Shown one piece after another: positions 1 to 48,706 of a DNA stretch of 64,000 nucleotides. Numbering within the stretch: the first letter of the stretch is position 1; every line of letters begins with the position of its first letter. This DNA is from Nostoc sp. DedSLP01 (GTDB lineage Bacteria; Cyanobacteriota; Cyanobacteriia; Cyanobacteriales; Nostocaceae): NCBI GenBank assembly GCA_034530875.2, contig JAVRCJ020000024.1, positions 63,048-127,047 of the forward strand. The letters are read 5' to 3'. Under the pieces are notes generated by a model, which saw only the letters and a list, made by a program, of their open reading frames with translations, ran no database searches and was not told the DNA's origin. Both the position numbers and the translations under genes were made by a program.

Positions 1-3000
1 AGGACATTTGCAGCTTGCCAGTTTTCTTCCATCTGTCTGCCTAAAGCGACTGAGGGAATTTCCTCTGGAACATTTTGGACGATATAATCGCGTACCAGTT
101 GCTTACGGGTTAACTCTGGCCCGATCGCTGTTATTTTGCCATTGTTTTGTCTAAAATCTTGCTTGAGAGAAACTGTTGAGCTAGATTCTGAGATTTTGAT
201 TCCATTACCGTTACCATTATTGTTTGGTATGTAATTGTGAATTGTCTCAGCAATCTCTTGAATCGTGGCGTTGGCTAGAGAAGGCGGGTCAATTTTCCCG
301 GCGGCGCCAAATAGCTTGGCGGCTTCTGCGACGACTTCACCGGCTTTGATGGAATCAAGGTTGAGGTCGTCGAGCAATCGCAATTCGGCTGTGATACTTT
401 CTCTGACATATCCTGTTTGTTGGATAATCAGGTCAGTCAGTGAAGAGGCGATCGCATCAGTTGTTTTCGTTAAGCTTGTGGGTATTATAGAAGCTGCTTC
501 ATGACCGTTGGATATGAAACTGCGAATCGTTTCAGCTATCTCTTGAATTGTGGCATTGGCTAAAGCAGGTGGGTCAATTTTCCCAGCCACACCATATTGT
601 TTGGCGGCTTCTGCGACAATTTCACCGGCTTTGATGGAATCAAGGTTGAGGTCGTCAAGCAATCGCAATTCTGCTGTAATACTTTCTCTGACATATCCTG
701 TTTGGCGAACAATCAAGTCTGCTAACAAGAACTCAACACTCTGATTAGTGTTTGTTTCTGCTGGCTTCAGTAACGTAGAAACGGTACTGTGGGAACCATT
801 ACCATTAACTGCATGAGTTATTCTCGCACCATTTTGAGGTGTTGCAGCTAAAGGCAGAGTTTGCATATCGGCTCGGATGACTTCAGCGATAAACTTACCG
901 CGTCGAGCCAGGTAATCTTGCAGTACCTCTGGTGAAGTATGGTTATGTTCGGCAAACAGCGAATAATTCAACAAGCTTTCAGAACCAATTCCCAAGGATG
1001 GAGATGAGTGAGTTGCAGATACAGCAAATGGCCTTTCTACAGGATTGTCGATGAAAATGCGCTCTGAGGCTGGTACAAAAGGACGTACAAGCCGACCTTC
1101 GTAAAGTGCTTCCCAGTTGATGTTATGACCGCGAACAAAGACGTTAGCTAACATCGTATTCAATGACTGGTCAAATCCAGGTTTGGCTTCCACTGGCAGA
1201 CATTCCAGCCCTTGCAACCCGGTGATGTCGTTTACCAATCCTGAGAGTACTTTGCCAGGGCCGACTTCTATGAGGACATCGCATATTTGCTCTAAGGTTT
1301 TCACCAGGGATACGAAGTCTACTTGTGCTAATACCTGATGGGCGAAGTGTTCGCGCAATTGCAATCCTATTGGTGGCTGTTTGCCATCTACAGATGAAAC
1401 TAGGTCTAAGGTAGTGTTCGAGAGTCTATCTGGAATTAGTTCGTATTTGTGTAGATATTGGGCGGCTTCCGAGACAAGTTGAGAATGAAAGGCATGAGAA
1501 ACTGGCAGCTTGTGTGTCCTGATTTCTTCCGCGGCGGCGAGTTCAATGACTTGTTCGATGCTCGATCGCTCGCCAGATATAATTATCTGGTTGGGACTAT
1601 TGATATTGGCGATCGCTACATAGCCATTGACTTGCTTTAACAATTCCTCGGCTTTTACACGGGAGCAAGCAATACTTACCATGCTTCCGCCCTGCTTACA
1701 CGCAGACATAGCGCGTCCCCGAACAGCAGCTAAACGAATCAAAGCTTGCTCGTCAAATGCACCTGCTGCGTGAAAAGCAGTTAGTTCTCCCAGACTATGA
1801 CCGCCGACAGCAACGGGGTTTAATCCTAGATGTTGCAGGTAGCGCATCCAAAGCAAAGAAGTTAAGCAAATAGCTGGTTGAGCGATTTCAGTTTGGGCAA
1901 TTTTCCCTGACCATTCTTCAAGCTGCTCTCCATTGATAGCCCGGTCTACAGGCTGATAAATCGACTCATTAATACCTGGAACACCAATTTCTTGCAGCCA
2001 TTTGTCGGCTCGATTTACTAATTCCTTCGCCCAGCTAAAGCGTTGTACGAGGGTACGGGCCATGTTCAGCTTTTGAGAACCTTGACCGGGGAAGAGAAAA
2101 CCGATACGGCTTGGTTGGACTTTATGGCCGACCCAAATTCCTTGTTGTGAGTTGAGGATGACCTCTCCCTCGGCTAGTGGTTTAGCATTCAACAATTCTT
2201 GCAAGAAAGTCAGACGTTCAACTAACTCATCAGGCGATCGCGCGATAATTGCTGCTCTAACTGGAAGTTCCTGATTGACTTTTTGAGCAAGATGTGATGC
2301 TAAATCGATGAGTTCGCTTAAACTCAAACCTTGGACTTTCGGAAGTAATGCATCTATGCGTTGCAACAAACCTGCAATTGATGCCGCACTCAAGACAAAA
2401 ATCTCTGTTTCTTGAGCAGAAACTAACAAAGCTTCCTCGTCAATTGACGGTTCTAGTTGAGTAGCAGGAGCATCGCCAGATTCTAAAGTAACGTGGCAAT
2501 TGATACCGCCAAATCCCATCGCGGAGACTCCAGCCCTGAGCGTATCTGTTGGCTGGCGAATTTCTCCTTGCATCACCGGGTAAAGAGAACGAGCAGCTTT
2601 GTCAAAGACTTCGCTTGGCTCGTTGCAACCGGCTAATGGCGGTATGACTCGGCGGTTAACAGCCATCACAGCTTTGATGAACCCGCCAATACCTGCTGCG
2701 GCTTTGGTATGTCCGACTAAAGATTTGAAGGAGGTAACACCACAAGAACGGAAATTGGTTTCGCTATCCGCACCCATCGCTAAGGCAATACCTTCTAATT
2801 CGGCGCGATCGCCTACTGGTGTGCCGGTACCATGACCTTCGATAAAATCAACCTGACTTAAGCTGTAACCTGCTCGGTTATAGGCGCGGCGTAGTGCCTT
2901 GGCTTGTCCTTCTCGAGAAGGAGCTGTTAGCCCGCCTTTACCATCAGATGAGATTCCCCAGCCATTCAACACTGCATAGATATAATCGTTATCGGCCCGG

Positions 3001-3878
3001 GCATCTTCTAAGCGCTTCAAAACGACAAAACCAGCACCCTCTCCGGGGATAAAACCACTGGCTTTTTTATCGTAAACGGTCATATCTTTGCTAGTTAAGG
3101 CACCTGTTTTAGCAAATCCTACTAATTCAAAGGTGTCTAAGCTAATATCTACGCCGCCAGCTAGTGCTAAATCGAGGTCGCCATTGCTTAATGCATTAGC
3201 AGCAGTGGCAACGGCAATCAATGAGGAAGAACAAGCGCCGTCTACCGTATAACCACCACCATGAAAGTTAAAGAAGTTACAAATTCTGCCAGCAATAGTG
3301 TTAGAAAGATTTCCAGAAAGTGTGTCTTCGGTGAAGGGCGAGAATACTGATTTGTAGTATTCTTGCATTGCCGTTGTCAGTTCATCTACGACTTGTAATG
3401 GCAAACCCTTGGCTTTTGCGGCTGTCTGTATGACTCGTTCGATAAACGGCCAGCGTAGCCGCATGTTATTAGAGCGTGTTTGTTCGCCTGTTAAGGAGTT
3501 ACCGAGGATGACTCCTGTACGTTCGTTGGGAACATTGGCCTTTGTATAACCTGAATCTTGTAAGGCGGCGATCGCTACTTCTAATGCCAGCCAGTGAGCG
3601 ATATCTGCGGTCTCGACTACAGTTTTGGGAATGCGCTTACTTGCCCAATCAAAATCAAAACCCTCAATCACGGCCATACGTTTGCCGTAGGTTTTGTCTG
3701 GCACCGCCGGGTCTGGATCGTAATAATCTGCAAGTGGTAAACGCTGCACTGGCGATTCTCTAAATTGTCGCCGCCGGGAAAGTATGTTTTCCCAAAGTTG
3801 TCGTAAATCCCTCGCACCAGGATACCAACAACCCATACCAATAACCGCAATTCTAGGTTGAGATATTTCTATTTGCAT
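1..3878 (-). CDS. pksE: Enediyne-type (PksE-like) iterative type I polyketide synthase, 3'-truncated by the window edge (KS-AT-ACP-ACP-start of KR)
   Basis: Not in the ORF track; translated by hand from ATG at 3878: MQIEISQPRIAVIGMGCWYPGA...DIAHWLALE...GVILGNSLTGEQTRSNNMRLRWP (PksE-typical), KS active site GGGYTVDGACSSS, EGHGTGT, GHTKAAAG, AT GHSLG and HAFHS, two LLDDLNLDSIKAGE ACP motifs. Motifs checked along the gene are in one frame. Confidence 0.9.
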   Translation of the reverse strand, partial: MQIEISQPRIAVIGMGCWYPGARDLRQLWENILSRRRQFRESPVQRLPLADYYDPDPAVPDKTYGKRMAVIEGFDFDWASKRIPKTVVETADIAHWLALEVAIAALQDSGYTKANVPNERTGVILGNSLTGEQTRSNNMRLRWPFIERVIQTAAKAKGLPLQVVDELTTAMQEYYKSVFSPFTEDTLSGNLSNTIAGRICNFFNFHGGGYTVDGACSSSLIAVATAANALSNGDLDLALAGGVDISLDTFELVGFAKTGALTSKDMTVYDKKASGFIPGEGAGFVVLKRLEDARADNDYIYAVLNGWGISSDGKGGLTAPSREGQAKALRRAYNRAGYSLSQVDFIEGHGTGTPVGDRAELEGIALAMGADSETNFRSCGVTSFKSLVGHTKAAAGIGGFIKAVMAVNRRVIPPLAGCNEPSEVFDKAARSLYPVMQGEIRQPTDTLRAGVSAMGFGGINCHVTLESGDAPATQLEPSIDEEALLVSAQETEIFVLSAASIAGLLQRIDALLPKVQGLSLSELIDLASHLAQKVNQELPVRAAIIARSPDELVERLTFLQELLNAKPLAEGEVILNSQQGIWVGHKVQPSRIGFLFPGQGSQKLNMARTLVQRFSWAKELVNRADKWLQEIGVPGINESIYQPVDRAINGEQLEEWSGKIAQTEIAQPAICLTSLLWMRYLQHLGLNPVAVGGHSLGELTAFHAAGAFDEQALIRLAAVRGRAMSACKQGGSMVSIACSRVKAEELLKQVNGYVAIANINSPNQIIISGERSSIEQVIELAAAEEIRTHKLPVSHAFHSQLVSEAAQYLHKYELIPDRLSNTTLDLVSSVDGKQPPIGLQLREHFAHQVLAQVDFVSLVKTLEQICDVLIEVGPGKVLSGLVNDITGLQGLECLPVEAKPGFDQSLNTMLANVFVRGHNINWEALYEGRLVRPFVPASERIFIDNPVERPFAVSATHSSPSLGIGSESLLNYSLFAEHNHTSPEVLQDYLARRGKFIAEVIRADMQTLPLAATPQNGARITHAVNGNGSHSTVSTLLKPAETNTNQSVEFLLADLIVRQTGYVRESITAELRLLDDLNLDSIKAGEIVAEAAKQYGVAGKIDPPALANATIQEIAETIRSFISNGHEAASIIPTSLTKTTDAIASSLTDLIIQQTGYVRESITAELRLLDDLNLDSIKAGEVVAEAAKLFGAAGKIDPPSLANATIQEIAETIHNYIPNNNGNGNGIKISESSSTVSLKQDFRQNNGKITAIGPELTRKQLVRDYIVQNVPEEIPSVALGRQMEENWQAANV
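238..742 (-). repeat. Tandem duplicated ACP domains inside the PKS (285-bp period)
   Basis: Near-identical TGYVRESITAELRLLDDLNLDSIKAGE..AEAAK..G.AGKIDPP.LANATIQEIAETI twice; active-site Ser codons at 351-353 and 636-638. Confidence 0.9.
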
Positions 3879-4054
3879 ATCTGTAATTAATCTACTTCCA
3901 ACACAAAATGAAAACTTTGATTCTAATGCTCAAGTTTGATTTTCAAGTTATATGACTCTTCTTGTAGGATGAGCGAGACACCTATCCTCCAAACTCAGCA
4001 GTCTAGAGAGTTTACCCTACAAGAATTAGAGTAGTAATTTATTGCTTGAGTTGC

Positions 4055-4555
4055 CTAACTAGCTATCTTGACCATTTCTTCAAACTTGCGATCGAGCATT
4101 TGCATAATTGTGGAAATCTTTTCATCGGGGAATTGACCTAGCAGTGACGATGGTTTGTCATAAGCAACATGTGTCTTACCATCGTAGTCATCGTAGACAA
4201 ATAGCCTTAATGGAACATAAAGACCAACCGCAGGGTTTTGTTCAAACATTTGATTGGCTATTAATGGGTTACCGATTATGTAAAGCTTGGCCTTTTTATT
4301 TTTACCAGCAAGAGACATGAGTTTGCCATGTTCAATTTGCGAAAAGATGGTAAAACCGCTTTGACCAATCATCGATTCAATACCACTTTTTATTTGTTCA
4401 AACGATTGCTTGGCTGCAATCATTTGTTGAAAAAGTGCGCTGTCAATTTTACCATTGATGGTTTCGATATTATTGGTAACTTCTTCAAATGACTTTTCCG
4501 AAGTAACAATTATACGAGTTGCTGTAAAATTGACGGTTTCTATCACAGTTTGCAT
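4055..4555 (-). CDS. DUF302 domain protein
   Basis: Motifs IDH/IEHGK, IGNPLIA, VGLYVPLRLFVY, YDKPSS typical of DUF302. Confidence 0.8.
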   Translation of the reverse strand: MQTVIETVNFTATRIIVTSEKSFEEVTNNIETINGKIDSALFQQMIAAKQSFEQIKSGIESMIGQSGFTIFSQIEHGKLMSLAGKNKKAKLYIIGNPLIANQMFEQNPAVGLYVPLRLFVYDDYDGKTHVAYDKPSSLLGQFPDEKISTIMQMLDRKFEEMVKIAS

Positions 4556-4692
4556 GACTATTTAACTCTTTTAATCTAGAGGTGTACAATCAATTCCTAC
4601 AGTTACTAAGTCAGATTATTAGGGCGTTGCAGATTGAAAACTCACGCAGAGGCGCAGAGTCGCAGAGAGTAAGAGTTGAGAAGAGTTGATTT

Positions 4693-6615
4693 TTATGTGA
4701 GAACAAAGCGTTCTTGGAGAATGCAAGTACTGAGCATTTTCATCAATGTCGGATCTATAGAACCGAGTTGATTTTCATTCATGTGTGGTATTTGGTCGAG
4801 GAATTGAACTACTGCTGGTTGGTTATAAAAAGGAACAGAAGCAAATGCTGAACTGCGTAAGGTGTCTTGGACAAGTTGGTGTAGAGGTTCGTTTTGCTTC
4901 AATGTGGAAGGCGGGGCAAAAAATGGATGTTTTTTGCGGTTATATACCATATCTGGTAGATAAGGTTTGGCAGCTTCTCGCAATATGTATTTGACATTCA
5001 TGCCACGAATCTTCAATGAAACAGGAATATTGCGCACTGTTTCTACAAGTTCATGGTCTAAAAATGGTAGTCTTCCTTCTGTAGAATGCGCCATTTCTGC
5101 ACCATCTCCCAATATCCTAAATAGGTAGGGTAGAACAGTTTTAGACCATAAATAAAGAGACTGATGAACGGGTTCTCGTTTTGCTAGTTGTCCTTGGACG
5201 TCGATTTCATTGAAGAATATACGATATGCATCTCGCTGGCCAAAGTGAGCTAAAAATTCTGGTGAGTATAGAGAAAGAGATTTGGCATATCCTTTAGCAT
5301 TAGCTTCTATCCAAGTGGGTACAAACCCTAAAAGGCGTTCGATATTAGCCAAAGGTTTGGATATTTCTTCAGGTAAGAAACCGGCTGCGGCGGAGACTTG
5401 GTTGTTACGTTTTAATTCTTCCAAGATATGCTTGATAGTCTGTTCGTCTTGACCTTTGGTGTTGTAACGCAACATGTCCATCAGAAAATGAACGTAGCCG
5501 CCAAAGATTTCATCAGCACCTTCACCTGTAAGTACAACTTTGTAACCTGCTTTTTGTACTGCTCGACTCAAAAGGTACTTAGCAGCAGCGCCAGCATTGA
5601 TACACACCATTTCACAGTGCCAAATGGCGTCTGCAAAATGCTCGGCTAAGTCAGATTGAGTGATGGGGACAATTTCATGGTTTGCTCCAGCTTTGGCTAC
5701 TGCTTCCCGAGCGAAAACTTCTTCGTTGTAGTCTTCGTGGTCGAAGGCGAGGGTAAATGCTGTAATTGGCTCGCTTGTATGGGTGGCCGCAATTCCCAAC
5801 ACCGCAGATGAATCAATTCCGCCACTAACGTGACAAGCTACCGGTACGTCTGCTCTTAACCGCAGTCGTATAGACTCGTTTAAACTATGGCGAACTTGTT
5901 GAATATAATCTTCTTCGCTTTGTTGGGGTTGTACATCGTTATTGGGGTAATCAAAATCCCAATAACGATGCAGTTGGATATTAGTACGAGATGCGAGTAG
6001 AAAATGTCCGGGTGGTACTTGATATATGTTTTTGAAGAAAGTCCGATCTGGGCTGAAGAGTCCGAGATCGGCTCTAAACCAAAATTCGCTATCCCAGTTA
6101 GCCGGAACGCCCGCAGCAAATAAAGCTTTGACTTCTGAAGCCAAGTACAGTGTATCGCCATGCATAGTGTAGTACAGAGGCTTGATGCCAAAGCGATCGC
6201 GCGCTGCAAACAATGTTTGATTGCGCTCATCCCAGATAACAAAAGCAAATTCACCCCGCAAATGATGGAGACATTGAGTGCCAAACTCGTTATATAGATG
6301 AATCGCAATTTCGCTGTCAGAGTGGGTTTGCAGCTTATATCCTTTTTGCTTTAAGTCCTGCTGTATCCTCTCAAAGTCATAAAACTCTCCATTGGCAACA
6401 ATATGGAGTGTGCCATCTCGATCGCTTATTGGTTGGTCTCCACTAGTGAGGTCAATAATACTAAGCCTTCTATGTCCTAACCCGACTCTGCCATCTTCGG
6501 AAATCCAAACCTTCTGTGCGTCAGGGCCTCTATGATGTAGGCTATCTATTCCTCGCTTCAAAGAGGTTTCGGAAATTGGTTCCTGTCTTGAGAACAATGC
6601 TACAATCCCACACAT
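4693..6615 (-). CDS. asnB: Asparagine synthase (glutamine-hydrolysing)-like amidotransferase, cluster-associated
   Basis: N-terminal MCGI, HRGPD, RLSIID, NGE, RDRFGIKPL, SGGIDSS, TGEGADE, RLPFLD; AAGGAG RBS. Confidence 0.92.
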   Translation of the reverse strand: MCGIVALFSRQEPISETSLKRGIDSLHHRGPDAQKVWISEDGRVGLGHRRLSIIDLTSGDQPISDRDGTLHIVANGEFYDFERIQQDLKQKGYKLQTHSDSEIAIHLYNEFGTQCLHHLRGEFAFVIWDERNQTLFAARDRFGIKPLYYTMHGDTLYLASEVKALFAAGVPANWDSEFWFRADLGLFSPDRTFFKNIYQVPPGHFLLASRTNIQLHRYWDFDYPNNDVQPQQSEEDYIQQVRHSLNESIRLRLRADVPVACHVSGGIDSSAVLGIAATHTSEPITAFTLAFDHEDYNEEVFAREAVAKAGANHEIVPITQSDLAEHFADAIWHCEMVCINAGAAAKYLLSRAVQKAGYKVVLTGEGADEIFGGYVHFLMDMLRYNTKGQDEQTIKHILEELKRNNQVSAAAGFLPEEISKPLANIERLLGFVPTWIEANAKGYAKSLSLYSPEFLAHFGQRDAYRIFFNEIDVQGQLAKREPVHQSLYLWSKTVLPYLFRILGDGAEMAHSTEGRLPFLDHELVETVRNIPVSLKIRGMNVKYILREAAKPYLPDMVYNRKKHPFFAPPSTLKQNEPLHQLVQDTLRSSAFASVPFYNQPAVVQFLDQIPHMNENQLGSIDPTLMKMLSTCILQERFVLT

Positions 6616-8180
6616 TTGCTGATTCTCCTTTGAAAAATTTTGAGATAGTTTGAATGTTTTGGCGTCAAAACATTATTTAGTGGATGAAATCATAATATTG
6701 AGAAAAACATTAGGTGTTAAAACGGTTGTGTTGTAAGGCTTTGGGAAAAGCTAAAGTTTTTGTGAAAATTACAGGCGATCGGAAAATCTAGAGTTATCGT
6801 ATTAACTGTCGGAATCAAAGATTAACATCTACCCTTAAATCAAAGTCTTTCCATTGCTTTGTAGTAGTTAAAAAATTTTTGCAATTTACTAATTGAACCT
6901 GCTTGCAAGCGAGCTCAAAATTCCTTGACTGTTCTAGATAGTAACTGAATTTGGCGAATGGAAAGTAAATTCTTCGGGTGAAGAAAAAGCCAAAATCACT
7001 GTACCATTTTTTCCAATCAATTCAACAGAGATTTGCTTATTTTTTGAAATATTCCAAATCACTCGCCTAATTTGATATTAGCCCAAAGGATGATTTTCCT
7101 GGTTCTATATGGTTGTCAATTCTTCTAATTAGGTTACATACCTTAGCTTGTGAGTAGTTGATGAGAAACCTACGCATAAGTAAGTAACCCATTTTCTTAG
7201 TCAGAAAAGCACAGAGATAATATTTGTAGACTCTACAAAAGTTGTTCAATTAACTTTGATAGGGTTAGCCCTATCAAGCTAGTTTTCATTAATCTCGAGC
7301 TTAATAATTGTCTAAGCCAATTTCGGATTGCTGTAAATATCAAAGCTTCTAAAGTCCTTTATTATAACTAGATTTTTCTACAAGATAAATACTCATTAAT
7401 CTGAGATTAATGACAATGTTTGATAGAAAAAGCAAGGATTAAAAGGCTGGTTTTGAAAACCGTTGGAAAAGTACAAAGCTTCTTTAAAGCTCGATAGCTA
7501 TAACTCAACAGCATTACTTCTGTTTATTATTCACAACCAGCAATTAGGATAATAGTACCCTTAAGGGTACTTTTTTTGCTGTATGCAATGCTGGCCTTTA
7601 ATGGAAAGTGTTGAAACTCTATCACTGATTAATTTGTAGCCAATAGCTTATTTAGGATTTATAGGAAACCTATGAGAACGACTAACACTAAATCAGCTTT
7701 AGAAAGCTAGTCTGGGATCAAACCCTGTCTATCAAGTTTAACCTCGTTTAATCTTTGCGATCGCAGAATACGACAATTTTGGTCTTTGTAAATTTAGGAA
7801 AGGTTAACATTAAAGTAAATTTTGGTTTTTTCTAAACTCAAGGCTAAATGTAAACAAATGTAACTAGATATGAATTTTTAGTAACAAAAGGATCGAGATC
7901 GACTCAATGGCAAATAACAAAATACTGTTTTGTTATACATAGCGATCGAGCTACCCGCAATCAATAAGTATGTTAATAATTTAACACTCTTAAAAAATTA
8001 GACATTTAAATAATAATTAAAATAAAGGCTTTTAACTGCCTAATTCTAAAATTATACGTAGTGTATTAGTCAAAAAATAAACTAAATATTTAGTTGTTGC
8101 ATTCGAGCATACAGCGATCCTAAATGGCTAGATAACAGCTTTTAAAGGTCAGGGCAAGCTCAATGGTCAATAAATTTAGC

Positions 8181-8210
8181 TTGACAATTAGCGGTTAGTT
8201 GTATATACAC
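8181..8210 (+). promoter_or_regulatory. Putative marR promoter (TTGACA-N17-TATACA) overlapped by palindromic operator TTGTATATACAC
   Basis: Consensus -35 at 8181-8186; perfect palindrome TGTATATACA at 8200-8209. Confidence 0.55.
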
Positions 8211-8237
8211 TTAATTTATGGTTATTAAAACCTGTTT

Positions 8238-8702
8238 ATGGAAAAGCAAGTTAATCGGTTAGATTTAGCTCAACTGATTGCGATTGAAAATACCTGCGCC
8301 TGCTTCAATCTGCGTAAAGCATCGAGAGCAGTCACGCAACTTTTTGATGAGAAGCTAGAGCCAACTGGTTTGCTGGTTACCCAGTTGACGCTTTTAGTTG
8401 CTATCTCAATTCTCGGCTCAGTCACAATGAGCGATTTAGCCGAAGGTTTAGTCATGGATAGAACTACCCTGACGCGAAATCTCAAGCCTCTCGAAAGGGA
8501 AGAAATGATTCAAATTAATCCTGGCGACGATCGCCGGGTGCGAATGATAACCTTGACGGATAAGGGACGCTCTATTTTGGCGCAAGCATTACCACTATGG
8601 CAACAAGCCCAAGCTCATATAGTCGAGAGCTTAGGCGAGGAAACTTTTAATTTGATGCTGTCGAGCTTAACTGCTACGGTTTCCATAGCTCGGAAAGGCT
8701 AA
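8238..8702 (+). CDS. MarR family transcriptional regulator
   Basis: CACFNLRKASRAVTQLFD, MDRTTLTRNLKPL, DRRVR winged-helix motifs. Confidence 0.92.
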   Translation: MEKQVNRLDLAQLIAIENTCACFNLRKASRAVTQLFDEKLEPTGLLVTQLTLLVAISILGSVTMSDLAEGLVMDRTTLTRNLKPLEREEMIQINPGDDRRVRMITLTDKGRSILAQALPLWQQAQAHIVESLGEETFNLMLSSLTATVSIARKG

Positions 8703-8754: not shown

Positions 8755-9873
8755 ATGTTTGAGCAAGAAGTATCTTTAACTCCTGAGAAAAACCATAGAC
8801 CCTCGCTCAAACCTATAGTGCAGTGGGCTGGCATTTTAGGAGCGATAGCAGCATTAGGGATAGGTGGATTTGTAGTTTGGAAAGTCAGTTCCCAAAGTGC
8901 GGTTGAAAATCAGACTGCGATACCTGCTTCTTTACCTAAAGCAGAAAAAGTTGTAGAGACAATAACTGCTTTAGGACGTTTGGAACCACACGGTGAAGTC
9001 ATTCAAGTCTCAGCACCCACTTTTTTAGAAGGCGCACGGGTTGAGAAACTTTTGGTGGAAGATACAGATTGGGTAAAATCCGGTCAGGTGATAGCAATCC
9101 TCGATCGCCGCGAACGCTTGGAAGCTGCTTTTAAACAAGCTCAAAGACAAGTTGAAGTAGCCCAAGCACACCTAGCACAGGTAAAAGCTGGAGCCAAACA
9201 GGGAGATTTAGCAGCCCAAAAAGCAACCATCGCTCGGTTAGAAGCAGAATTACGCATTGCCGAAACAGAACATCAACGGTACAAATTTCTCCAACAAGAG
9301 GGAGCTATCTCTGCTTCACTGCTAGATTCAAAACGCCAAATCGTCGAAACAATTCAAGGACAGCTCAATCAAGCTAAATCTACCTTAACTAGCATTGCAG
9401 AAGTTCGTCCGACTGATATTCAAGAAGCTCAAGCAGAAATTGCCAGTGCTGTAGCATCGGCGCAAAAAGCCAAAGCCGACTTAGAAACCGCCTTTGTCAC
9501 CGCACCGCAGAACGGTCAAGTTTTAAAAATTCATACTCGTGCGGGAGAGATGGTTGGAGCCAAAGCGATCGCAGATATAGGGCAAACTAGCCAAATGGAC
9601 GCCATCGCCGAAGTTTACGAAAACGATCTTGCGAAAGTGAAAATAGGTCAAAAAGCTACGATTACCAGTATTAACAAAGCCTTCCCTGGAAAACTCCAAG
9701 GAACTGTATACCGAATTATTCCTCAAATTGGCAAGCGGGATGTCCTCAATGACGACCCAGCAGCAGCAGTGGATGCCAGAGTTGCCGAAGTCAAAATCCG
9801 TTTGTTACCGAAAGATAGCAAGCGAATTATGGGTTTGATCAATCTGAAAGTAGAAGTAGCGATCGCTCCTTAA
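8755..9873 (+). CDS. devB: DevB-family ABC exporter membrane fusion protein (paralogue)
   Basis: N-terminal TM, TALGRLEPHGEVIQVSAP, coiled coil, AEVYEND, DARVAEVKIRL. Confidence 0.85.
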   Translation: MFEQEVSLTPEKNHRPSLKPIVQWAGILGAIAALGIGGFVVWKVSSQSAVENQTAIPASLPKAEKVVETITALGRLEPHGEVIQVSAPTFLEGARVEKLLVEDTDWVKSGQVIAILDRRERLEAAFKQAQRQVEVAQAHLAQVKAGAKQGDLAAQKATIARLEAELRIAETEHQRYKFLQQEGAISASLLDSKRQIVETIQGQLNQAKSTLTSIAEVRPTDIQEAQAEIASAVASAQKAKADLETAFVTAPQNGQVLKIHTRAGEMVGAKAIADIGQTSQMDAIAEVYENDLAKVKIGQKATITSINKAFPGKLQGTVYRIIPQIGKRDVLNDDPAAAVDARVAEVKIRLLPKDSKRIMGLINLKVEVAIAP

Positions 9874-9973
9874 TTCTGGCAGTGAAAGTAATATGTTTTC
9901 TCAATTTCAGGAGTGTAAAAACTCTAAATTGTATTTTCTCAAGAATGAAACTTAAATTAACTTATGTAATGCA

Positions 9974-11161
9974 ATGATAGGTTTTAATTTATTCTTCCTT
10001 GATAGGAATCAAATTCCCCTAGCATGGTTGCAACTAATGCGGGAGAAAACGCGGTTACTCGTTGCCATTTCAGGTATTAGCTTTGCAGTAGTGCTAATGT
10101 TTATGCAGATGGGATTTCTGACTGCTTTATTTGATAGTGCAGTTGGTATGCATAGCAGTTTACAAGGCGATATTGTGCTGGTTAGTCCTCGGTCGGTGGC
10201 CTTAATTGCTATGAAGCCATTTTCCCAACGGCGGCTATACCAAACATTAGGCTTTGAAGGCGTAGAATCAGTTAGTCCTATTTATGTAGATTCTGGCATC
10301 TGGAAAAACCCACAAAATCCTAGTATCACTCGCAATATTCGAGTCTATGGAATTAATCCTGACGAGCAAGTTTTTAACATGCCGGGGATAGCTGAAAATC
10401 TAGATAAGATTAAAAAGCCTGATGTAGTTTTATTCGATTGGGGTTCGCGTACTGAATTTGGACCGATTAGCACTTTATTCAAGCAGGAAAAAAGTGTAAT
10501 TACAGAGGTAGAAGAACGCCGAGTTAATGTTGGGGGTTTGTTTGAATTGGGAGTTACCTTTGGCTCTGATGGCACTTTAGTCACCAGCGATATAAATTTT
10601 TTGAGAATTTTTGAAGGGCGTAGAAGTGCAGGATTAATTGATATCGGTTTGATTAAATTAAAACCGGGTGTAGATGCAGTAAAAGTCCTAAAAAACTTGA
10701 GGGAAAATCTACCCAAAGATGTGAAAATTTTATCAAAAAAAGAATACAAAGATTTTGAAGTCAACTATTGGAGTGGCAGCACGCCCATTGGTTTTACCTT
10801 TATACTTGGTACAATTATGGGCTTTATTGTCGGTACGATTATCGTTTATCAAGTACTTTATACTGACGTTAACGATCATCTACCAGAGTATGCCACACTC
10901 AAAGCGATCGGATACAAAGATTCCTTCTTTTCAGGTGTTGTATTTCAAGCAGCGATAATTTTAGCCGTGTTAGGCTTTTTGCCTGGAATATTAATTGCTT
11001 GGGGTTTATACGAACTCACGCGCAACGCTACACTATTGCCGATGTTTATGCAGCTAGATAAAAATTTACTAGTTTTAGTTTTGACATTTGTGATGTGCTT
11101 TGTCTCTGGTAGTATCGCTATACGTAAGCTGCGAGAAGCAGACCCAGCCGACATATTTTAA
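9974..11161 (+). CDS. devC: DevC-family ABC exporter permease (paralogue)
   Basis: IPLAWLQL..EKTRLLVAISGISFAVVLMFMQ.GF, HLPEYATLKAIGY, C-terminal ADPADIF. Confidence 0.9.
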   Translation: MIGFNLFFLDRNQIPLAWLQLMREKTRLLVAISGISFAVVLMFMQMGFLTALFDSAVGMHSSLQGDIVLVSPRSVALIAMKPFSQRRLYQTLGFEGVESVSPIYVDSGIWKNPQNPSITRNIRVYGINPDEQVFNMPGIAENLDKIKKPDVVLFDWGSRTEFGPISTLFKQEKSVITEVEERRVNVGGLFELGVTFGSDGTLVTSDINFLRIFEGRRSAGLIDIGLIKLKPGVDAVKVLKNLRENLPKDVKILSKKEYKDFEVNYWSGSTPIGFTFILGTIMGFIVGTIIVYQVLYTDVNDHLPEYATLKAIGYKDSFFSGVVFQAAIILAVLGFLPGILIAWGLYELTRNATLLPMFMQLDKNLLVLVLTFVMCFVSGSIAIRKLREADPADIF

Positions 11162-11190
11162 ATAGAAGGCTCCAAAAAACAAGACTTATT

Positions 11191-11370
11191 TATAGGACTG
11201 AGATTTGATTGCGTGAAAAAAATCAGTACATCCAGACAAGGCTTCTGTCCTACTCCCTGCCTATCGCGCTTGCGCTGCGCTTCTCTACGAGACGCTTTGC
11301 GTAGCTTGCTTCCCCGCAAGGGTACGCGCACCACACAAATAAATTCTCCAAATAAAACCGGATTTCTATA
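11191..11370. mobile_element. MITE-like element between devC and devA carrying a nested small dispersed repeat
   Basis: Ends TATAGGACTGAGATTTGA / AAACCGGATTTCTATA; internal 34-mer at 11279-11312 recurs at 63567-63600 (32/34). Confidence 0.5.
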
Positions 11371-11436
11371 GTTTCTGGATATCATTTGAGATTTAATCTT
11401 GTCTAACTACTCAATATCCTTTTTTATAGTTTTATT

Positions 11437-12168
11437 ATGCAATCGGAACCTATTGTTAATATTGAAAACCTCAGCCATTACTACGGTCAAGGAGCTTTAC
11501 GCAAACAAATTCTGTTTGATATTAATCTCCAAATTCAACCAGGCGAAATTGTAATTATGACCGGGCCTTCTGGGTCTGGTAAAACTTCTTTACTAACTTT
11601 AATTGGTGCTTTACGTTCAGCCCAAAGCGGGAGTTTAAAAGTTTTTGGTCAAGAGTTATGTAGAGCTAGTCAAGACCAATTAGTGCAAGTCCGACGCAAT
11701 ATCGGCTATATTTTTCAGGCACATAACTTGTTGAGTTTTTTAACAGCTCAACAGAATGTGCAAATGTCGCTACAACTCCAACCTGGTATGACCAAACAAA
11801 AGGCTCAACGCCGAGCAAAATCTATACTTGAAGTTGTTGGACTAGGGCAAAGAATTAATAGTTATCCAGAAAACCTTTCTGGCGGACAAAAACAGCGAGT
11901 TGCAATTGCTCGTGCTTTGGTAAATTCTCCTAGATTAGTTCTAGCTGACGAACCTACTGCTGCTTTAGATAGTAAGACTGGTCGCGATGTAGTAGATTTG
12001 ATGCAAAAACTAGCTAAAGAACAAGGGTGTTCTATTTTATTAGTGACTCACGATAATCGGATTTTGGATATTGCGAATCGGATTGTATATATGGAAGATG
12101 GCCGATTACAGAAAAGTAAAACGCAAACTTTTGTTAAAGAAGATGCCATACAAAACGCACTCAGGTAA
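11437..12168 (+). CDS. devA: DevA-family ABC exporter ATP-binding protein (paralogue)
   Basis: GPSGSGKT, LSGGQKQRVAIARAL, LADEPTAALD, VTHD. Confidence 0.9.
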   Translation: MQSEPIVNIENLSHYYGQGALRKQILFDINLQIQPGEIVIMTGPSGSGKTSLLTLIGALRSAQSGSLKVFGQELCRASQDQLVQVRRNIGYIFQAHNLLSFLTAQQNVQMSLQLQPGMTKQKAQRRAKSILEVVGLGQRINSYPENLSGGQKQRVAIARALVNSPRLVLADEPTAALDSKTGRDVVDLMQKLAKEQGCSILLVTHDNRILDIANRIVYMEDGRLQKSKTQTFVKEDAIQNALR

Positions 12169-12627: not shown

Positions 12628-12860
12628 TTGTCAATTTGTATTTCCGTCTTTACCCGGATCTCGGCTTTACCTCTATTGGATTCAATAGAAACAGATCGTA
12701 AATGGGTTTAACTCTATTATATTTCCGATTTGACAGCGAACTTTGTTTGAGAAATATCTAATATGGATAATTCTTACTCAAAAAGCTCAGATGTGGAGCT
12801 AATCTAAACCTGCGATCGCAAGAGAAACTCAATAATCCCAACTGGAATTCAGGATTGACC

Positions 12861-15800
12861 ATGAGCCAACGATTCCCATCTGAAAATTTCCAGACAAATG
12901 TTGGAACTAATACTGGTTTAATTGGAAGCGATCGCGCACAAATCCCTCTGTGTGAGAGCGACGCATATTGGCAGCAAGCAATTGAGTATGCTTCTTTGGG
13001 GATAGCCATATTCGATCGAGAAATGCGTTATCTAAATGTGAATCGCAAATGGCTCGACGATTATCAGCTGACTGATAACATTATTGGATGCTCACACTAT
13101 GAGATATTTCCTGATATTACACCAGAGTGGAAGCAAATTCATCAAAAGTGTTTGGCAGGGGAGACCATACAACGTGCTGAAGATCCTTGTCTACTAGCAG
13201 GCGGAACTATAGAGTGGATCGGTTGGTCAATCCGTCCTTGGTATATGGCAGACGGTGAAATCGGCGGCATTATGATGTTCAGTGAGAACATCACCCAGCG
13301 CAAGCAAACGGAAATAACGCTGCAAGAACGCGAGGAACAATTCCGCTTAACTTTTGAACAAGCGGCCATAGGGATTTGCCACGTAAGTTTAGATGGACAT
13401 TGGGTGCTGGTTAATCAACGCTTCTGTGAAATTGTGGGTTACGAGCGTGAGGAATTATTAGCTCTGACATTTCAAGATATTACTCATCCGGAGGACTTAG
13501 AAACAGATTTCAGTTATGTCCAGCAGTTGCTTCAAGGTATAATTACTCGCTACTCAATTGAGAAGCGATACATCCATAAAAACGGTTCTATTATTTGGAT
13601 CGCTCTCGACGTTTCCTTGCTGCGTCTAGCTTCTGGAGAACCTGTATACTTTATTTCCACTATTCAGGATATTGGCGATCGCAAACAAGCCGAAATCGCA
13701 CTCCAGCAAAGCGAAGAACGTTATCGTTCGCTAATTGCTGCAACTTCTCAAATAGTCTGGACAGCAGATACTCAAGGGCGATCGCCAGATATGCCAACCA
13801 TGAGGGCTTACACCGGACTAACCGAATCAGAGGTAATTAATTTGGGTTGGTTAAATGCAATTCATCCAGACGATCGCCAAAAAACAACTCAAGTCTGGAT
13901 GCAAGCAGTGGAAACCAGAAGCTTATATGAAGTAGAGTATCGGATTCGAGGAGCTGATGGTAATTATCGCTATTTCCAAGGTCGAGGTGTTCCCGTTCTC
14001 AATGGAGATGGTAGCATCCGCGAGTGGGTAGGGACTTGTACCGACATCCACGAGAGCAAAGAAGCTGAAGAAGCTTTACAAGAAAGCAATACATTGTTGC
14101 GATCGATTTTAGAAAGTACTCCAGACTTCATTGTTGTCAAGGATCTTGATGGGCGTCATGTTGCTCTTAACTCGAATTTAGCCAAATTCTTTGGTAAGCC
14201 AATTGAGGAAATTATCGGCAAAGATGATTTTGAACTACTATCGCCTGAGGTTGCAAGTGCAATGATGGCTAAAGACCGCCAGATTATGACCGCAGGCATT
14301 GCTGAGACTTATGAAGAAGATGTCCATAATGGTGAAATTAGAGGAACCTACCTGACTACAAAAGCTCCTTGGCGGGATACTCACGGGAATATTCTCGGTA
14401 TTATTGCCATCACTAGAAATATTAGCGATCGCAAACAAGCAGAACTAGCGCTGCAACGAAGTGAAGAAAGATTCCGTTCGTTAATTGAAGCTACATCTCA
14501 AATTGTTTGGAGTACTGATGCTGAAGGTGCATTCGTCACCGACCAACCACAATGGCGAGCTTTCACAGGACAAACCGCGGAAGAACTGTCGGGTTTGGGA
14601 TGGCTAAATATGATACATCCAGAAGATAAAGCTCACACTAATGAGGTTTGGTCAGCAGCACTTAGCAAGCGCACTGTTTATCAAGCCGAGCTACGGATTC
14701 AGCGTCATGACGGTGAGTACCGCTACTTCAGCGCCCGTGGCGTACCGATGTTGGATGTAGATGGCAGCGTGCGAGAGTGGGTAGGTGCTAACACTGATAT
14801 TACCGATCGCAAACAAGCAGAAATTGCTCTTGCCAAAGCCAAAGAAGCAGCAGAAGCAGCGAGTTATGCCAAAAGCGAATTTCTGGCTAACATGAGCCAT
14901 GAGTTACGGACACCGCTTAATGGCATCCTTGGCTATGCCCAAATTCTTCAGCGTTCCAAAAATTTAGATGAAGAAGCGCGATCGCGCATTGATGTCATCT
15001 ACCAGTGCGGTTCGCATTTGCTGACCTTAATTAATGACATCTTAGATTTGTCCAAGATTGAGGCGCAGAAAACAGAACTCATGCCTACGGATTTCCACTT
15101 CCCGGCCTTCTTGCAAGGTGTCGCCGAGATGTGCCGCATCCGTGCCGAACTGAAAAATATTAATTTTCAATATCAATTAGCCTCAGAACTACCTATTGGC
15201 ATTCGTGCCGATGAAAAACGCCTGCGGCAAGTATTAATCAACCTTCTGAGCAACGCCATCAAATTTACCGATACAGGTAGCGTCACCTTTACAATTAGCT
15301 ATGGCTCGGAAGAAAAAATTCGCTTTGAAATACGCGATACAGGCATCGGTATTGCTCAAGACAAACTCGAAGCGATTTTTCAACCCTTTGAACAAGCAGG
15401 AGATAGCCGCCGCCAAACCGAGGGTACTGGGTTGGGATTGGCAATCAGTCAAAAAATTGTAGAACTGATGGGTAGCACGATTCACGTTCAAAGTGAGATA
15501 GGAGTCGGCAGTATTTTCTGGTTTGATGTCAACTTACCTGTTGCTGACGAATGGGTGAAAACATCGCAAGCTGACGATAAAGGACAAATTATTGGCATCA
15601 AAGACTGTCGTCCTAAGGTGCTTGTGGTTGATGACAAATGGGCAAATCGCTCAGTCGTTGCCAACTTGCTTACTCCCATTGGTTTCGAGATCGCTGAAGC
15701 ACTCAATGGAGAAGAAGGTTGGCAAAAAGTTCAAGAATTTCAGCCAAATCTCGTCATTACCGATTTATTGATGCCAGAACTCGATGGCTTTGGTCTCATC

Positions 15801-16223
15801 AAGCGTATTCGCGAATCGGATACATTCAAAGATATTGCCATAATTGTTTCCTCAGCTAGCGTATTTGAAAGCGATCGCGATCGGAGCTTAGAAGTGGGGG
15901 GAGATGAGTTTCTTCCCAAACCTTTACAAGCAATGGATCTGTTTCAAAAATTACGCAAACTTCTCAATCTAGAGTGGCTTTACGAACAGCAAGATTTAAG
16001 TCAATCAGAGCACCACTATACTCAGCTAGTCGCTCCACCTACAGCAGAATTAGAAACTCTGTACGAGTTGGTAATGAAAGGTAACTTCAAGGGAATTATT
16101 AAACAAGCAGCATTGCTTGCACAAATGGATGAAAAATACATCCCCTTTGCTAATAAGCTGCACGAACTGGCAAAAGGATTTCAAGACCAAGATATTCTTG
16201 CACTCATTCAATCTTACAAATAA
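12861..16223 (+). CDS. Multi-PAS hybrid sensor histidine kinase (about 5 PAS/PAC, HisKA, HATPase, REC)
   Basis: Repeated HPED/HPDD and DITDRKQAE PAC ends; FLANMSHELRTPLNGI; NLLSNAIKFT; GTGLGL; VDD..TDLLMP..KP receiver. ORF track starts at TTG 12855. Confidence 0.92.
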   Translation: MSQRFPSENFQTNVGTNTGLIGSDRAQIPLCESDAYWQQAIEYASLGIAIFDREMRYLNVNRKWLDDYQLTDNIIGCSHYEIFPDITPEWKQIHQKCLAGETIQRAEDPCLLAGGTIEWIGWSIRPWYMADGEIGGIMMFSENITQRKQTEITLQEREEQFRLTFEQAAIGICHVSLDGHWVLVNQRFCEIVGYEREELLALTFQDITHPEDLETDFSYVQQLLQGIITRYSIEKRYIHKNGSIIWIALDVSLLRLASGEPVYFISTIQDIGDRKQAEIALQQSEERYRSLIAATSQIVWTADTQGRSPDMPTMRAYTGLTESEVINLGWLNAIHPDDRQKTTQVWMQAVETRSLYEVEYRIRGADGNYRYFQGRGVPVLNGDGSIREWVGTCTDIHESKEAEEALQESNTLLRSILESTPDFIVVKDLDGRHVALNSNLAKFFGKPIEEIIGKDDFELLSPEVASAMMAKDRQIMTAGIAETYEEDVHNGEIRGTYLTTKAPWRDTHGNILGIIAITRNISDRKQAELALQRSEERFRSLIEATSQIVWSTDAEGAFVTDQPQWRAFTGQTAEELSGLGWLNMIHPEDKAHTNEVWSAALSKRTVYQAELRIQRHDGEYRYFSARGVPMLDVDGSVREWVGANTDITDRKQAEIALAKAKEAAEAASYAKSEFLANMSHELRTPLNGILGYAQILQRSKNLDEEARSRIDVIYQCGSHLLTLINDILDLSKIEAQKTELMPTDFHFPAFLQGVAEMCRIRAELKNINFQYQLASELPIGIRADEKRLRQVLINLLSNAIKFTDTGSVTFTISYGSEEKIRFEIRDTGIGIAQDKLEAIFQPFEQAGDSRRQTEGTGLGLAISQKIVELMGSTIHVQSEIGVGSIFWFDVNLPVADEWVKTSQADDKGQIIGIKDCRPKVLVVDDKWANRSVVANLLTPIGFEIAEALNGEEGWQKVQEFQPNLVITDLLMPELDGFGLIKRIRESDTFKDIAIIVSSASVFESDRDRSLEVGGDEFLPKPLQAMDLFQKLRKLLNLEWLYEQQDLSQSEHHYTQLVAPPTAELETLYELVMKGNFKGIIKQAALLAQMDEKYIPFANKLHELAKGFQDQDILALIQSYK

Positions 16224-16228
16224 AGGCT

Positions 16229-17557
16229 ATGAATCTCCAAATCGAACAAATTCCGACGGTTCTTATTGTTGATGATAATCCAGCCAATTTAGGTGTTTTA
16301 TCTGATGCCCTCGATCAGGCTGGCTTAGAAGTTTGGGTAGCAAAATCTGGCAAGGTAGCTCTCGAACGCGTGATGTATGCTCTACCAAATTTAATCTTGT
16401 TGGATGTAATGATGCCAGAGATGGATGGTTTTGAAACTTGTCGCCAATTGAAGGCAAATCCTGTAACTAAAGATATTCCAGTCATTTTTATGACTGCACT
16501 CTCTGATACTGCCAACAAAGTCGAAGGTTTTGAAGTTGGCGCTGTAGACTACATTACAAAACCTTTCCAGCAAGAAGAAGTTTTATCACGGGTGAAATTG
16601 CATTTGAAGCTGTACGATTTAACAAATAAGCTAGAGCAGAAAAATACTCTTTTGGAGCAGAAAGTTTCAGAAATTAGCCTTGCATATAATGATTTACAAG
16701 AAATGCAAATCAAGCTGATTCAAAGCGAGAAACTATCTAGTTTAGGACAAATGGTAGCTGGAATTGCTCATGAAATTAACAACCCCGTAAATTTTATTTA
16801 TGGCAATCTCAGCCATGCTAATGAATATACCCGAGAAGTGTTGAATCTGCTGCGTCTTTATCAAGAAGAATATCCCAATCCCACACCCCGTATTCAAAGC
16901 GAACTGGAGGCGACTGATATAGATTTTATCCAGGATGACTTATTCAAATTACTCAACTCAATGAATATCGGTGCAAAACGTATTCGTGAAATCGTACAAT
17001 CTATGCGGATTTTCTCTCGTGTAGACGAACTCAACATGAAAGCGGTGAATATTCACGAAGGTATTGAGAGCACACTGACTATTTTAAACTACCGATTAAA
17101 ATCAAGACCAGACCATCCTGGAATCGAAATCGTTAAAAATTACGGTCAATTACCACTAGTTGAATGTCATGCCGGACAACTCAACCAAGTATTTATGAAT
17201 GTGCTTGCTAATGCCATTGATGCATTAGACGAACACAATCAAAATCGCTCATTTGAAGAGATTCAAAAACAACCAAGTCGGATTGAGATTACCACCAAGG
17301 TAATTGGAGATAATTGGGTTTCTATTCATATAGTTGATAACGGCCCTGGTATTTGTGAAGATGTCAAAGCAAAGCTGTTCGATCCATTTTTCACAACGAA
17401 AGCTGCCGGCAAAGGAACCGGATTAGGCTTGTCTATCAGCTACCAGATTATTGCTCAAAAGCATGGTGGCAGTCTTTACTGTGAATGTATACCTGGAAAA
17501 CAGACAGAATTTGTAATTCAAATTCCAATTCAACAGCGAGTTGCCCAAGTTGCTTAA
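16229..17557 (+). CDS. Hybrid response regulator/histidine kinase (REC-HisKA-HATPase)
   Basis: [44 protein letters not shown]. Confidence 0.92.
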
Positions 17558-17753: not shown

Positions 17754-19082
17754 TCACAAACTAAATTCGGCTGCATTATCTTCATCGAAATCTGCATCTT
17801 TCCCAACAGCAGTTGGTTTAAATTTAGAATCGTGAACTAATTCACTAAATGAAATTCCTGGGTTTTGCACCAGAATATTCAGCACGCTCATAAAATCCCG
17901 CACAATTTCCCCTGGCGTCAGCAATGCTTCTGCACCCAAGCGATTGACAATTTCTTGCACGAAATCTTTTAACTCACGATTTGTTAAAGTCTGTTGATAA
18001 CCAAAATTGAGAGCATGAATTTCAGCTAAACGTTGCAAAAGCGTCAAAATTTCTACTTCACTTAACGGATTTAATCGAATTACTGGCCCTAAAACTTCTT
18101 GAACGTTAGCTTGTGCGGCAAAACGGCTTTCTTTCGTGCGTCTTCGCCAAGCTTGGTCTGCAAAAAGTCCCCTATTTGGATCTTCTAAAAATTTGGTTGT
18201 TCCACCAATAAAAATACCAAGATGTTCTGCTTTACATTGCATGGTATCGTTAAACATTGCTAGAAGTCGATTATAATTCTTTTCTCGCGTGACCGTAGTA
18301 GAAATTTGATATAAATGTACAGCTTCATCAACTAAAATTAACAGCCCTTTATAACCGATTTCAGCGACAAATTTAGCAAATAATTTGATGTAGTCATACC
18401 AACTATCATCATCAATAATGACTCGGACTCCTAAGGCTGCTTTCGCCTCAATTCTAGTAGTAAATTCTCCGCGCAACCAGCGCATTGCTGCATTTTTTAA
18501 ATTGTCATCATCCAATCTGTAGCCGCGCCAATAAGCAATAATCACACTACCAAAATCGAAACCGTGAACTAAATCTTCAATGTATTGAACTACTTCCCTA
18601 ATTTTTAATTCAACTCGGTCGTCAAAACCGTCGTCATTAGGACGCATTTCAGTTTCTTTGACTACTTCTTGTTGAATTTTATTAATCCATCCTTCCAAAA
18701 TCGAAACTAAAGCACCACCATCAGGACGAGTTTTTGTAGCTAAATGGCTCATTAATTCTCGATAGGTTGCTAAACCTTCGTTGTTACTTCCTGCTAACCG
18801 ACGTTCAGGCGATAAATCAGCATCAGCGACGACAAAACCTTGCTCCATCGCTCGGTTACGAATTAGTTGCAGTAAAAAGCTTTTTCCCGAACCGTAATTG
18901 CCAATTATAAACCTAAATGCTGCTACGCCTTCTGCAATATCATCCAAATTTTGTAATAGGCTTTTGAGTTCTTTTTCTCGACCTACTGCTATATGTTCAA
19001 CTCCCATTCTTGGTACTACCCCCGCACCAAGGGAATTAATCAAAGCAGTGGAAATTTTTTTCGAGATTTTGAGCTTTGCCAT
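17754..19082 (-). CDS. DUF2791 / BrxD-like P-loop ATPase (Shango SngB-like)
   Basis: SLGAGVVPR.G, GNYGSGKS Walker A, LSPERRL.G, RWLRGE, LVDE Walker B. Confidence 0.85.
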   Translation of the reverse strand: MAKLKISKKISTALINSLGAGVVPRMGVEHIAVGREKELKSLLQNLDDIAEGVAAFRFIIGNYGSGKSFLLQLIRNRAMEQGFVVADADLSPERRLAGSNNEGLATYRELMSHLATKTRPDGGALVSILEGWINKIQQEVVKETEMRPNDDGFDDRVELKIREVVQYIEDLVHGFDFGSVIIAYWRGYRLDDDNLKNAAMRWLRGEFTTRIEAKAALGVRVIIDDDSWYDYIKLFAKFVAEIGYKGLLILVDEAVHLYQISTTVTREKNYNRLLAMFNDTMQCKAEHLGIFIGGTTKFLEDPNRGLFADQAWRRRTKESRFAAQANVQEVLGPVIRLNPLSEVEILTLLQRLAEIHALNFGYQQTLTNRELKDFVQEIVNRLGAEALLTPGEIVRDFMSVLNILVQNPGISFSELVHDSKFKPTAVGKDADFDEDNAAEFSL

Positions 19083-19197
19083 GTATTACACTTCACTTTA
19101 TTCTAAACCCAGAAGCAGGCAGCGGCTAGTTAATGTATTTTCTTGCCTTATTCATAATATAACAACGTCAGCATTTAGAAGTCAGGATTAAGAAGTC

Positions 19198-20532: not shown

Positions 20533-20685
20533 AGTATTTGGTAATTTTTAATTAGAATATACATAGAAAAATCCTTAATAAAAATAGGTTGAAATTTGTA
20601 GTATAATAATATTTCTAAAATCTATAATTAGAATTATTTGTCAATAACATTGTTACGCAATAAATAAAAAAGTGTCATCAACAAA

Positions 20686-22038: not shown

Positions 22039-22136
22039 TGCTTGATTATCGATCGACTGGGTGATGTAGCTAGATAGCTATGGTAAATTGTCTGCTGACC
22101 CTGGCAGCAAAATCAAAATCTACATAGGTTTTAACA

Positions 22137-48514: not shown

Positions 48515-48706
48515 AGTCCAAAAGAAAATTATTACTTCAATTAATAACTGATTCCTTATTTAAATTATTAATACATTTGTATTTATTTAGTACAAAATTA
48601 CCAAACTTTTGTACTTTAAACAAAAATTTATATATAGCAACTGACCATTTATTACTGCTTCTATGGAATCCTAGAAGAAGCAGTACTTTTGGCAGAGGAA
48701 TTTAGG

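Follow-up and report, generated by a model that had tools for sequence, protein, structure and literature searches.

A widespread PksE-like polyketide synthase clade and its orphan gene cluster with halogenase-like, cleavage dioxygenase and AsnB-type genes in Nostoc sp. DedSLP01

The DNA analysed here, called the window, is a 64,000-nucleotide stretch of the Nostoc sp. DedSLP01 genome (G000, 99.8% complete; G000:C24:63048-127047, a window coordinate being the C24 coordinate minus 63047). Its left end holds only the head of a gene cluster built around a PksE-like iterative polyketide synthase (PKS), and the remainder lies to the left of the window. On the minus strand, the genes follow the order asnB, DUF302, PKS, two halogenase-like genes, an aldehyde dehydrogenase (ALDH) gene, a cleavage dioxygenase gene, three DUF1702 genes and a looser tail (Table 1), with gaps of 137 nt between asnB and DUF302 and of 176 nt between DUF302 and the PKS gene. 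An earlier reading of the window (the original prediction) had described DUF302 and an intact MCGI-type asnB as co-oriented with the PKS, and both were recovered (PF03625; TIGR01536, 456 bits against a cut-off of 267). Judged from sequence comparison, this is a real, intact, orphan cluster that belongs to a widespread PksE-like clade.

The minus-strand open reading frame (ORF) of more than 1290 codons that the original prediction reported as absent from the ORF track exists: it runs from window position 3878 to 3, is open at the window edge with 1292 aa, and was absent from the closed-ORF track because it runs off that edge. It continues for 2928 nt leftward. All the motifs that had been quoted for it were found in the full 2268-aa translation, namely those of the ketosynthase (KS) and acyltransferase (AT) part (HWLAL, GNSLTGEQTRSNNMRLRWP, GGGYTVDGACSSS, GHSLG, HAFH and RLVRPF..F..NP.ERP) and two identical carrier motifs, LLDDLNLDSI, which indicate tandem acyl carrier proteins (ACPs). 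Pfam placed KS, AT, ACP, ketoreductase (KR) and dehydratase (DH) domains. We aligned the protein with SgcE, encoded on the C-1027 plasmid, and with another 25 long relatives. In register with SgcE were the KS Cys-His-His, the GHSLG/HAFH of the AT, the nucleotide and Tyr motifs of the KR, the His and Asp of the DH, and the DxE and WxxxE of the phosphopantetheinyl transferase (PPTase) (identity 50.5% for the KS, 42% for KS-AT and 30% for the rear half). The PksE architecture KS-AT-ACP-KR-DH-PPTase is therefore present with its motifs intact and one extra ACP, and apart from that ACP the order is the one given in the available part of PMC9992847. The protein stops at the PPTase, with no thioesterase domain. 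By homology, the enzyme should work like PksE.

In a quick KS tree of 62 rows, one of them a characterised PksE, the KS fell inside the wider PksE-like group (SH-aLRT 99) and there in a separate 40-row clade (SH-aLRT 99) of cyanobacterial, Derxia, Desulfosarcina and myxobacterial sequences, with 94% identity to the KSs in two Nostoc records. This clade is sister (SH-aLRT 92) to SgcE and five cyanobacterial loci with full or nearly full cassettes, so that the KS stands outside the clade of cassette-bearing PksEs. A polyunsaturated fatty acid-type PKS of the PfaA/HglE kind was ruled out by this grouping and by TIGR02813, which scored the PKS at 607 bits, below the cut-off of 1010, and the genome's own HglE-type gene on C21 at 1716. 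The KS is thus of PksE type, as originally predicted.

The minimal enediyne PKS cassette is defined as five genes, E3/E4/E5/E/E10, in the available parts of PMC5181780 and PMC10760148. For E4 (ASPIC/UnbV), PF07593 had no match in G000, G018 or G096, while both positive controls (G217 and G163) were recovered. Searches with six-sequence profiles gave a best E4 match in G000 of 22.7 bits on another contig, only partial E5 (RnfD-like) matches of 25-32% and at most 49.9 bits on C23 and C31, and no E10 hot-dog thioesterase, free or fused, in the cluster, the best matches in the genome (18.8 and 16.7 bits) lying on other contigs. With no E4, E5 or E10 ortholog found, the cluster is not a member of the enediyne cassette family, in keeping with the earlier view that this is not a canonical cassette. 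With 28-33% identity between the DUF1702 proteins and the C-1027 protein at the E3 position, E3 is present; its three copies are found 10-13 kb beyond the left edge of the window, oriented like the PKS. The statement that no E3/E4/E5 lies upstream was literally true, these genes being out of view beyond the window, and the downstream E3/E4/E5 named as evidence against the prediction turned out to exist for E3 and not for E4 or E5. A canonical cluster for a 9- or 10-membered enediyne, its cassette scattered over the genome, could be argued for, given the PksE-like PKS, the E3 genes and, in the tail, a GMC oxidoreductase with a distant likeness (27%) to the protein at the C-1027 E9 position; however, the absence of E4, the weak E10, E4 and E5 profile matches and the position of the KS outside the clade of SgcE and the cyanobacterial full-cassette loci make this highly improbable.

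According to the available part of PMC9992847, the carrier-bound product of PksE is a 3-hydroxy-hexaenoyl octaketide, which the thioesterase converts to a heptaene. As there is no thioesterase, decarboxylating release to the enediyne heptaene would be impossible from this cluster, and the genes behind the PKS suggest other chemistry. All PDB matches of the halogenase-like proteins, 11/11 with a single sequence and 13/13 with a 39-sequence profile, were halogenases, with PltA first. An AlphaFold model (pLDDT 77.6) likewise had PltA as its top Foldseek match (E 5e-19), followed by PltM, FasV and CtcP. GxGxxG is present. W-x-W-x-x-P occurs in 52/52 cluster copies, 44 of which have Ile as the residue preceding Pro, and at least 90% of copies keep K85, which aligns with the PltA Lys. 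We take GxGxxG, the Lys and WxWxIP to be the halogenase signature and the aligned PltA Lys to be catalytic. In both sequence and predicted fold, the two proteins have the features of two-component flavin-dependent halogenases. They belong to a largely cyanobacterial subfamily (536 homologs at E<=1e-30). A JamD-type alkyne halogenase label was dropped, as the cluster enzymes are PltA-like and JamD is set apart by description, being grouped with single-component enzymes in the available part of PMC11725856; JamD was not named among the members of 7 listed clusters.

The dioxygenase retains its four His motifs. Its closest match is carotenoid 9,10-dioxygenase (E 6e-106), and it also matches lignostilbene dioxygenases. 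Paralogs of the dioxygenase and the ALDH occur elsewhere in the genome (62% and 61% identity), suggestive of a duplication that brought a carotenoid-degrading pair into the cluster. Cleavage followed by aldehyde oxidation is described for neurosporaxanthin, with CAO-2 acting before YLO-1 (PMC5133782, available part). Alternatively, spontaneous or DUF1702-guided cyclisation of the polyene might give an aromatic or stilbene-like intermediate, to be chlorinated by the halogenases and cut by the dioxygenase to a halogenated benzaldehyde, from which a benzoic acid or benzamide would follow. The best NCBIfam model of the ALDH, benzaldehyde dehydrogenase MdlD (452 bits, under its 550 cut-off), and the lignostilbene dioxygenase matches point that way, as do the nearest solved halogenases, whose substrates are largely aromatic rings. 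However, the dioxygenase is far closer to the carotenoid enzyme than to the stilbene enzymes (E 2e-64), and no known cyclase gene is present, so that we regard the aromatic route as distinctly improbable.

We then compared the cluster across 301 genomes of the family, counting a locus where the KS match was at least 67%. The clade PKS was found at 43 loci in 38 genomes, a count that excludes split KS matches in G068, G185, G258 and G262 and ten matches of 48-53%. Halogenase-like genes adjoin 40/43 loci (proximity, on the same contig and nearby, read by hand from coordinates). The context was read over 20-40 kb around 26 of the 43 loci and around 5 canonical ones; as kin share traits, the tallies are not independent counts. 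The 26 loci hold a halogenase in 24 cases, the dioxygenase in 14, ALDH in 13, E3 in 13 (two copies in 12 of these and three in G000), DUF302 in 12, where it accompanies the cluster type with ALDH, dioxygenase and E3, and asnB in 4, one of them truncated; none has E4, E5 or a free thioesterase. The canonical loci have E3 and E5 in 5/5, E4 and a thioesterase in 4/5 each and a halogenase in 0/5. A fused, double hot-dog, E10-like thioesterase stands behind the PPTase in 6/26 clade loci and in eight further ones (Derxia, two Desulfosarcina, a myxobacterium, PCC 7822, L013, G081 and G143 C46). Basal relatives carry the fused thioesterase, and the subclade of G000 lost it. Within the 26, all 14 dioxygenase loci are without a thioesterase and all six fused-thioesterase loci are without the dioxygenase. 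A 117-aa protein with no family match (L032:19355-19705, L046:18944-19297) follows the halogenases in 10/26 loci, all of which lack the pair of ALDH and dioxygenase, and was not found in G000.

The AsnB protein is itself intact, with the N-terminal Cys, the SGGIDSS and EGRLPFLD motifs, and glutaminase and ATP-pyrophosphatase domains. It adjoins only 5/43 clade loci, and its role as the lead feature, on which the original prediction was built, did not hold up beside the 40/43 of the halogenase-like genes. Nevertheless, PKS-linked asnB genes form three separate clades with three gene positions: upstream of the PKS (in G000, L003 and L007 alike), after the dioxygenase (G006a and G144 in the asnB tree; L008 and L122 share their layout) and after a halogenase (G143 C46; truncated in G193). 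This pattern indicates that AsnB was recruited to the PKS at least three times. The four loci of the second kind have a minimal PKS-dioxygenase-asnB variant, with or without ALDH, and therefore spell out cleavage, oxidation and amidation as a unit; in L008, asnB starts 3 nt after the dioxygenase. In this cluster, asnB is an accessory gene, probably functional, and its product a probable carboxamide-forming enzyme.

Taken together, we consider the chance about even that the cluster makes a halogenated, oxidatively shortened polyene acid, here probably as an amide, and not a cyclic enediyne. By homology with PksE, the self-priming iterative PKS would build a carrier-bound conjugated polyene from malonyl units, and the two PltA/CmlS-like flavin enzymes would halogenate it, probably on the carrier, with a flavin reductase from elsewhere. 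The CCD1-like dioxygenase would then cut a C=C bond to give an aldehyde, possibly releasing the chain, the ALDH would oxidise this to the acid, and AsnB, as an accessory step, would use nitrogen from glutamine to turn the acid into a carboxamide. For the three DUF1702 proteins, the likeliest task is to bind or guide the reactive polyene, and a DevBCA exporter may carry the product out. The available part of PMC9682884 describes PksE clusters that can yield linear polyene polyols.

Several observations weigh against this pathway. The identity to solved halogenase structures is only about 21%, Foldseek also scores monooxygenases and a geranylgeranyl-reductase-like protein (E 4e-16 to 3e-14), and no flavin reductase was found in the cluster, the SgcE6-like genes lying on C4, C8 and C68. 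Both thioesterase and dioxygenase are missing from 5/26 loci (a sixth, G284, runs into a contig end), and the two occur together in PCC 7822; three generic 4HBT hot-dog thioesterase genes on other contigs of G000 encode ordinary enzymes that could act in trans. Close relatives show decay, with a truncated halogenase and no second copy in L103 (G219 C32) and a split ALDH in L104 (G284 C79). As for AsnB, its gene does not adjoin the PKS of G018 (PKS identity 84%), 35/40 close asnB matches are not beside this PKS, 8/10 inspected asnB contexts (one at a contig edge) are without a PKS or nonribosomal peptide synthetase match, and this PKS occurs in 1/80 metagenome asnB loci, many of them on short contigs. 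Being mostly found apart from the PKS, asnB may therefore be a passenger that landed upstream, in which case the same core chemistry would give a nitrogen-free halogenated acid or aldehyde. A weak minus-strand terminator-like site between asnB and DUF302 would agree with this, although our scan found such sites at chance level (12 promoter and 4 terminator sites against 13.0 and 3.1 expected). The three separate recruitments, the tight junction in L008 and the synteny kept in L003 and L007 argue the other way, and we hold a passenger asnB to be unlikely, if by no means far-fetched.

The role of DUF1702 is the weakest part of the proposed mechanism. A confident model of the protein is all-helical (pLDDT 84.6); Foldseek had no match at E<=0.001 and the best VIA Z was 4.1 (root-mean-square deviation 4.3, 115 aligned), so that the fold searches show neither a new fold nor a function. 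A PDB sequence search and the ESM Atlas gave nothing usable. E3 could instead serve an alkyne route, in which the E3 paralogs and flavin halogenases replace E4/E5 and halogenation with elimination gives a linear product, a (halo)enyne or polyyne, for later trimming and amidation. The 13 loci that keep E3 although none of the 26 has E4/E5, the E3 pair directly before the halogenase genes in G014, G007 and G209, and the lack of halogenase genes at the canonical loci would suit such a route. The diiodotetrayne work reportedly places an iodinated polyyne on the enediyne pathway, in which E3/E4/E5 have a role. On the other side, the other 13 loci are without E3 in the stretch read, so that the family seems able to do without it, no His is conserved in the E3 alignment, and the three E3s of this cluster are divergent, with a long branch in the tree. 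We are doubtful of the alkyne route, and similarly doubtful that the clade is an independent enediyne-type branch in which halogenases replace E4/E5 and, together with duplicated E3 proteins, convert the PksE polyene to halogenated enynes or polyynes, an oxygenase releasing the chain instead of a thioesterase.

On the other side of asnB, a 1.6-kb AT-rich gap with no long ORF (window 6616-8237) separates it from a divergent MarR-family gene, a candidate cluster regulator found at the same position in L003 and L007; these two loci carry in the gap a response-regulator-like ORF that the window does not have. The DevB-DevC-DevA-type exporter that follows (TIGR02971 and TIGR01185 above cut-off) keeps its layout in L003 and L007, and also adjoins several more distant clusters. 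Directly after devA lie a PAS hybrid histidine kinase and a response regulator (window 12855-17554). Further on (window 17757-22077, 48638-50144 and 53081-55008), N-terminal sequences point to ATPase-like ORFs, to what is likely a methyltransferase/endonuclease pair and to a pair of SMC-like ATPases, possibly defence genes. A search for tRNAs in the window was negative, and upstream of asnB no repeat stood out. At the other end, an NMT1/nitrate-type ABC transporter (C24 37716-40991) accompanies the cluster; the cluster-linked binding protein of a relative is 82% identical to this copy and at most 46% to the genome's other copies, and the substrate might be a halide or the cluster product.

Table 1. 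Genes of the cluster and its flank, in window coordinates or in those of contig C24
Feature	Coordinates	Strand	Remarks
PksE-like iterative PKS, 5' part (KS-AT-ACP-ACP)	window 1..3878	-	Pfam, motif alignment
Full PKS gene, 2268 aa, adding KR-DH-PPTase	C24 66925-60119	-	extension left of window
DUF302 protein, 166 aa	window 4055..4555	-	PF03625, E 1.9e-13
asnB-type glutamine amidotransferase, 640 aa, MCGI start	window 4693..6615	-	Pfam GATase_7 + Asn_synthase
Halogenase-like 1, 606 aa	C24 58178-59998	-	left of window
Halogenase-like 2, 623 aa	C24 56082-57953	-	left of window
Aldehyde dehydrogenase (ALDH)	C24 54611-55966	-	left of window
CCD1-like cleavage dioxygenase (CCO)	C24 53145-54650	-	RPE65-family; left of window
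Three DUF1702/E3-family genes	C24 52188-53129, 51236-52156, 50213-51130	-	left of window
Looser tail: RTX-repeat protein, GMC oxidoreductase, UbiA-family protein, small exported protein, two YCII, ECF-type sigma factor, NMT1-type ABC transporter	within C24 37716-49813	-	
MarR-family regulator (candidate)	window 8238..8702	+	PF01047/PF12802; divergent
DevB-DevC-DevA-type ABC exporter (candidate)	window 8755..12168	+	

The original prediction missed the halogenase, dioxygenase and ALDH core that defines the likely chemistry, while the amide product it proposed is plausible. It was right to call the system uncharacterised, since no description of this architecture was found in the literature searched (MIBiG and most subscription papers lay outside its scope). 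Enediyne-type KSs in cyanobacteria are noted in PMC4247773, PMC10308959 and bioRxiv 2022.10.12.511943, and the available parts of these give neither this gene set nor its product. Loci of this type get labelled 'enediyne' from the KS or E3 alone, and their gene content argues otherwise. The clade also offers a natural series, with fused or lost thioesterase and with or without E3, dioxygenase and AsnB, for PksE output without the cassette and for DUF1702 alone, and it supplies a largely cyanobacterial halogenase-like subfamily, for which we found no assay, and a dioxygenase that probably acts on a polyketide. If the alkyne route were true, it would add to the bacterial routes to alkynes, would show the role of E3 and could explain orphan cyanobacterial ene-diyne compounds.

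Other loci of the survey are of interest in their own right. Complete E3-E4-E5-PksE-thioesterase cassettes occur in heterocystous cyanobacteria at L060, L062, L064 and L085 (G163, G020, G217 and G186) and on pSymA of Sinorhizobium meliloti T073 (L091), and their gene content makes these five candidates for enediyne loci outside actinomycetes. L016 (Fischerella muscicola SAG 1427-1) and G301 have a variant with the PKS and two halogenases. The fischerellin cluster was not known in 2021, according to the available part of PMC8406139; a link to L016 is a weak lead, and that locus is without an obvious nitrogen source. A PF00487 search returned only ordinary-looking desaturases, with no polyyne-type cassette in the three contexts read, and a desaturase trio on C19 was dropped, its N-termini resembling those of ordinary membrane-lipid desaturases.

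Set beside known systems, the cluster shares with the minimal cassette (SgcE of C-1027, NZ_CP013739.1; available parts of PMC5181780 and PMC9992847) the domain order, the C-terminal PPTase and the DUF1702 genes, but it has two ACPs, E3 downstream in three copies, a separate KS clade, and halogenases, dioxygenase, ALDH, AsnB and DUF302 instead of E4/E5/E10. The canonical cyanobacterial cassettes (G163, G020, G217 and G186, and a partial one in G031) come from the same host family, with 50-52% KS and 43-50% E3 identity, but keep E3-E4-E5-PKS-thioesterase with one ACP and no halogenase nearby, and group with SgcE. The PfaA/HglE glycolipid PKSs have a related KS and tandem ACPs, but their KS is only 37% identical and falls outside the clade. 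The PltA/CmlS-type halogenases share GxGxxG, the aligned Lys, W-x-W-x-I-P and the fold, whereas the cluster enzymes are divergent in sequence and have about 150 extra C-terminal residues. Finally, carotenoid cleavage systems (NosCCD/CCD1) likewise have a CCD1-like enzyme with four His motifs beside an ALDH, but here the pair stands behind a PKS, so that its substrate is presumably a polyketide polyene and not a carotenoid.

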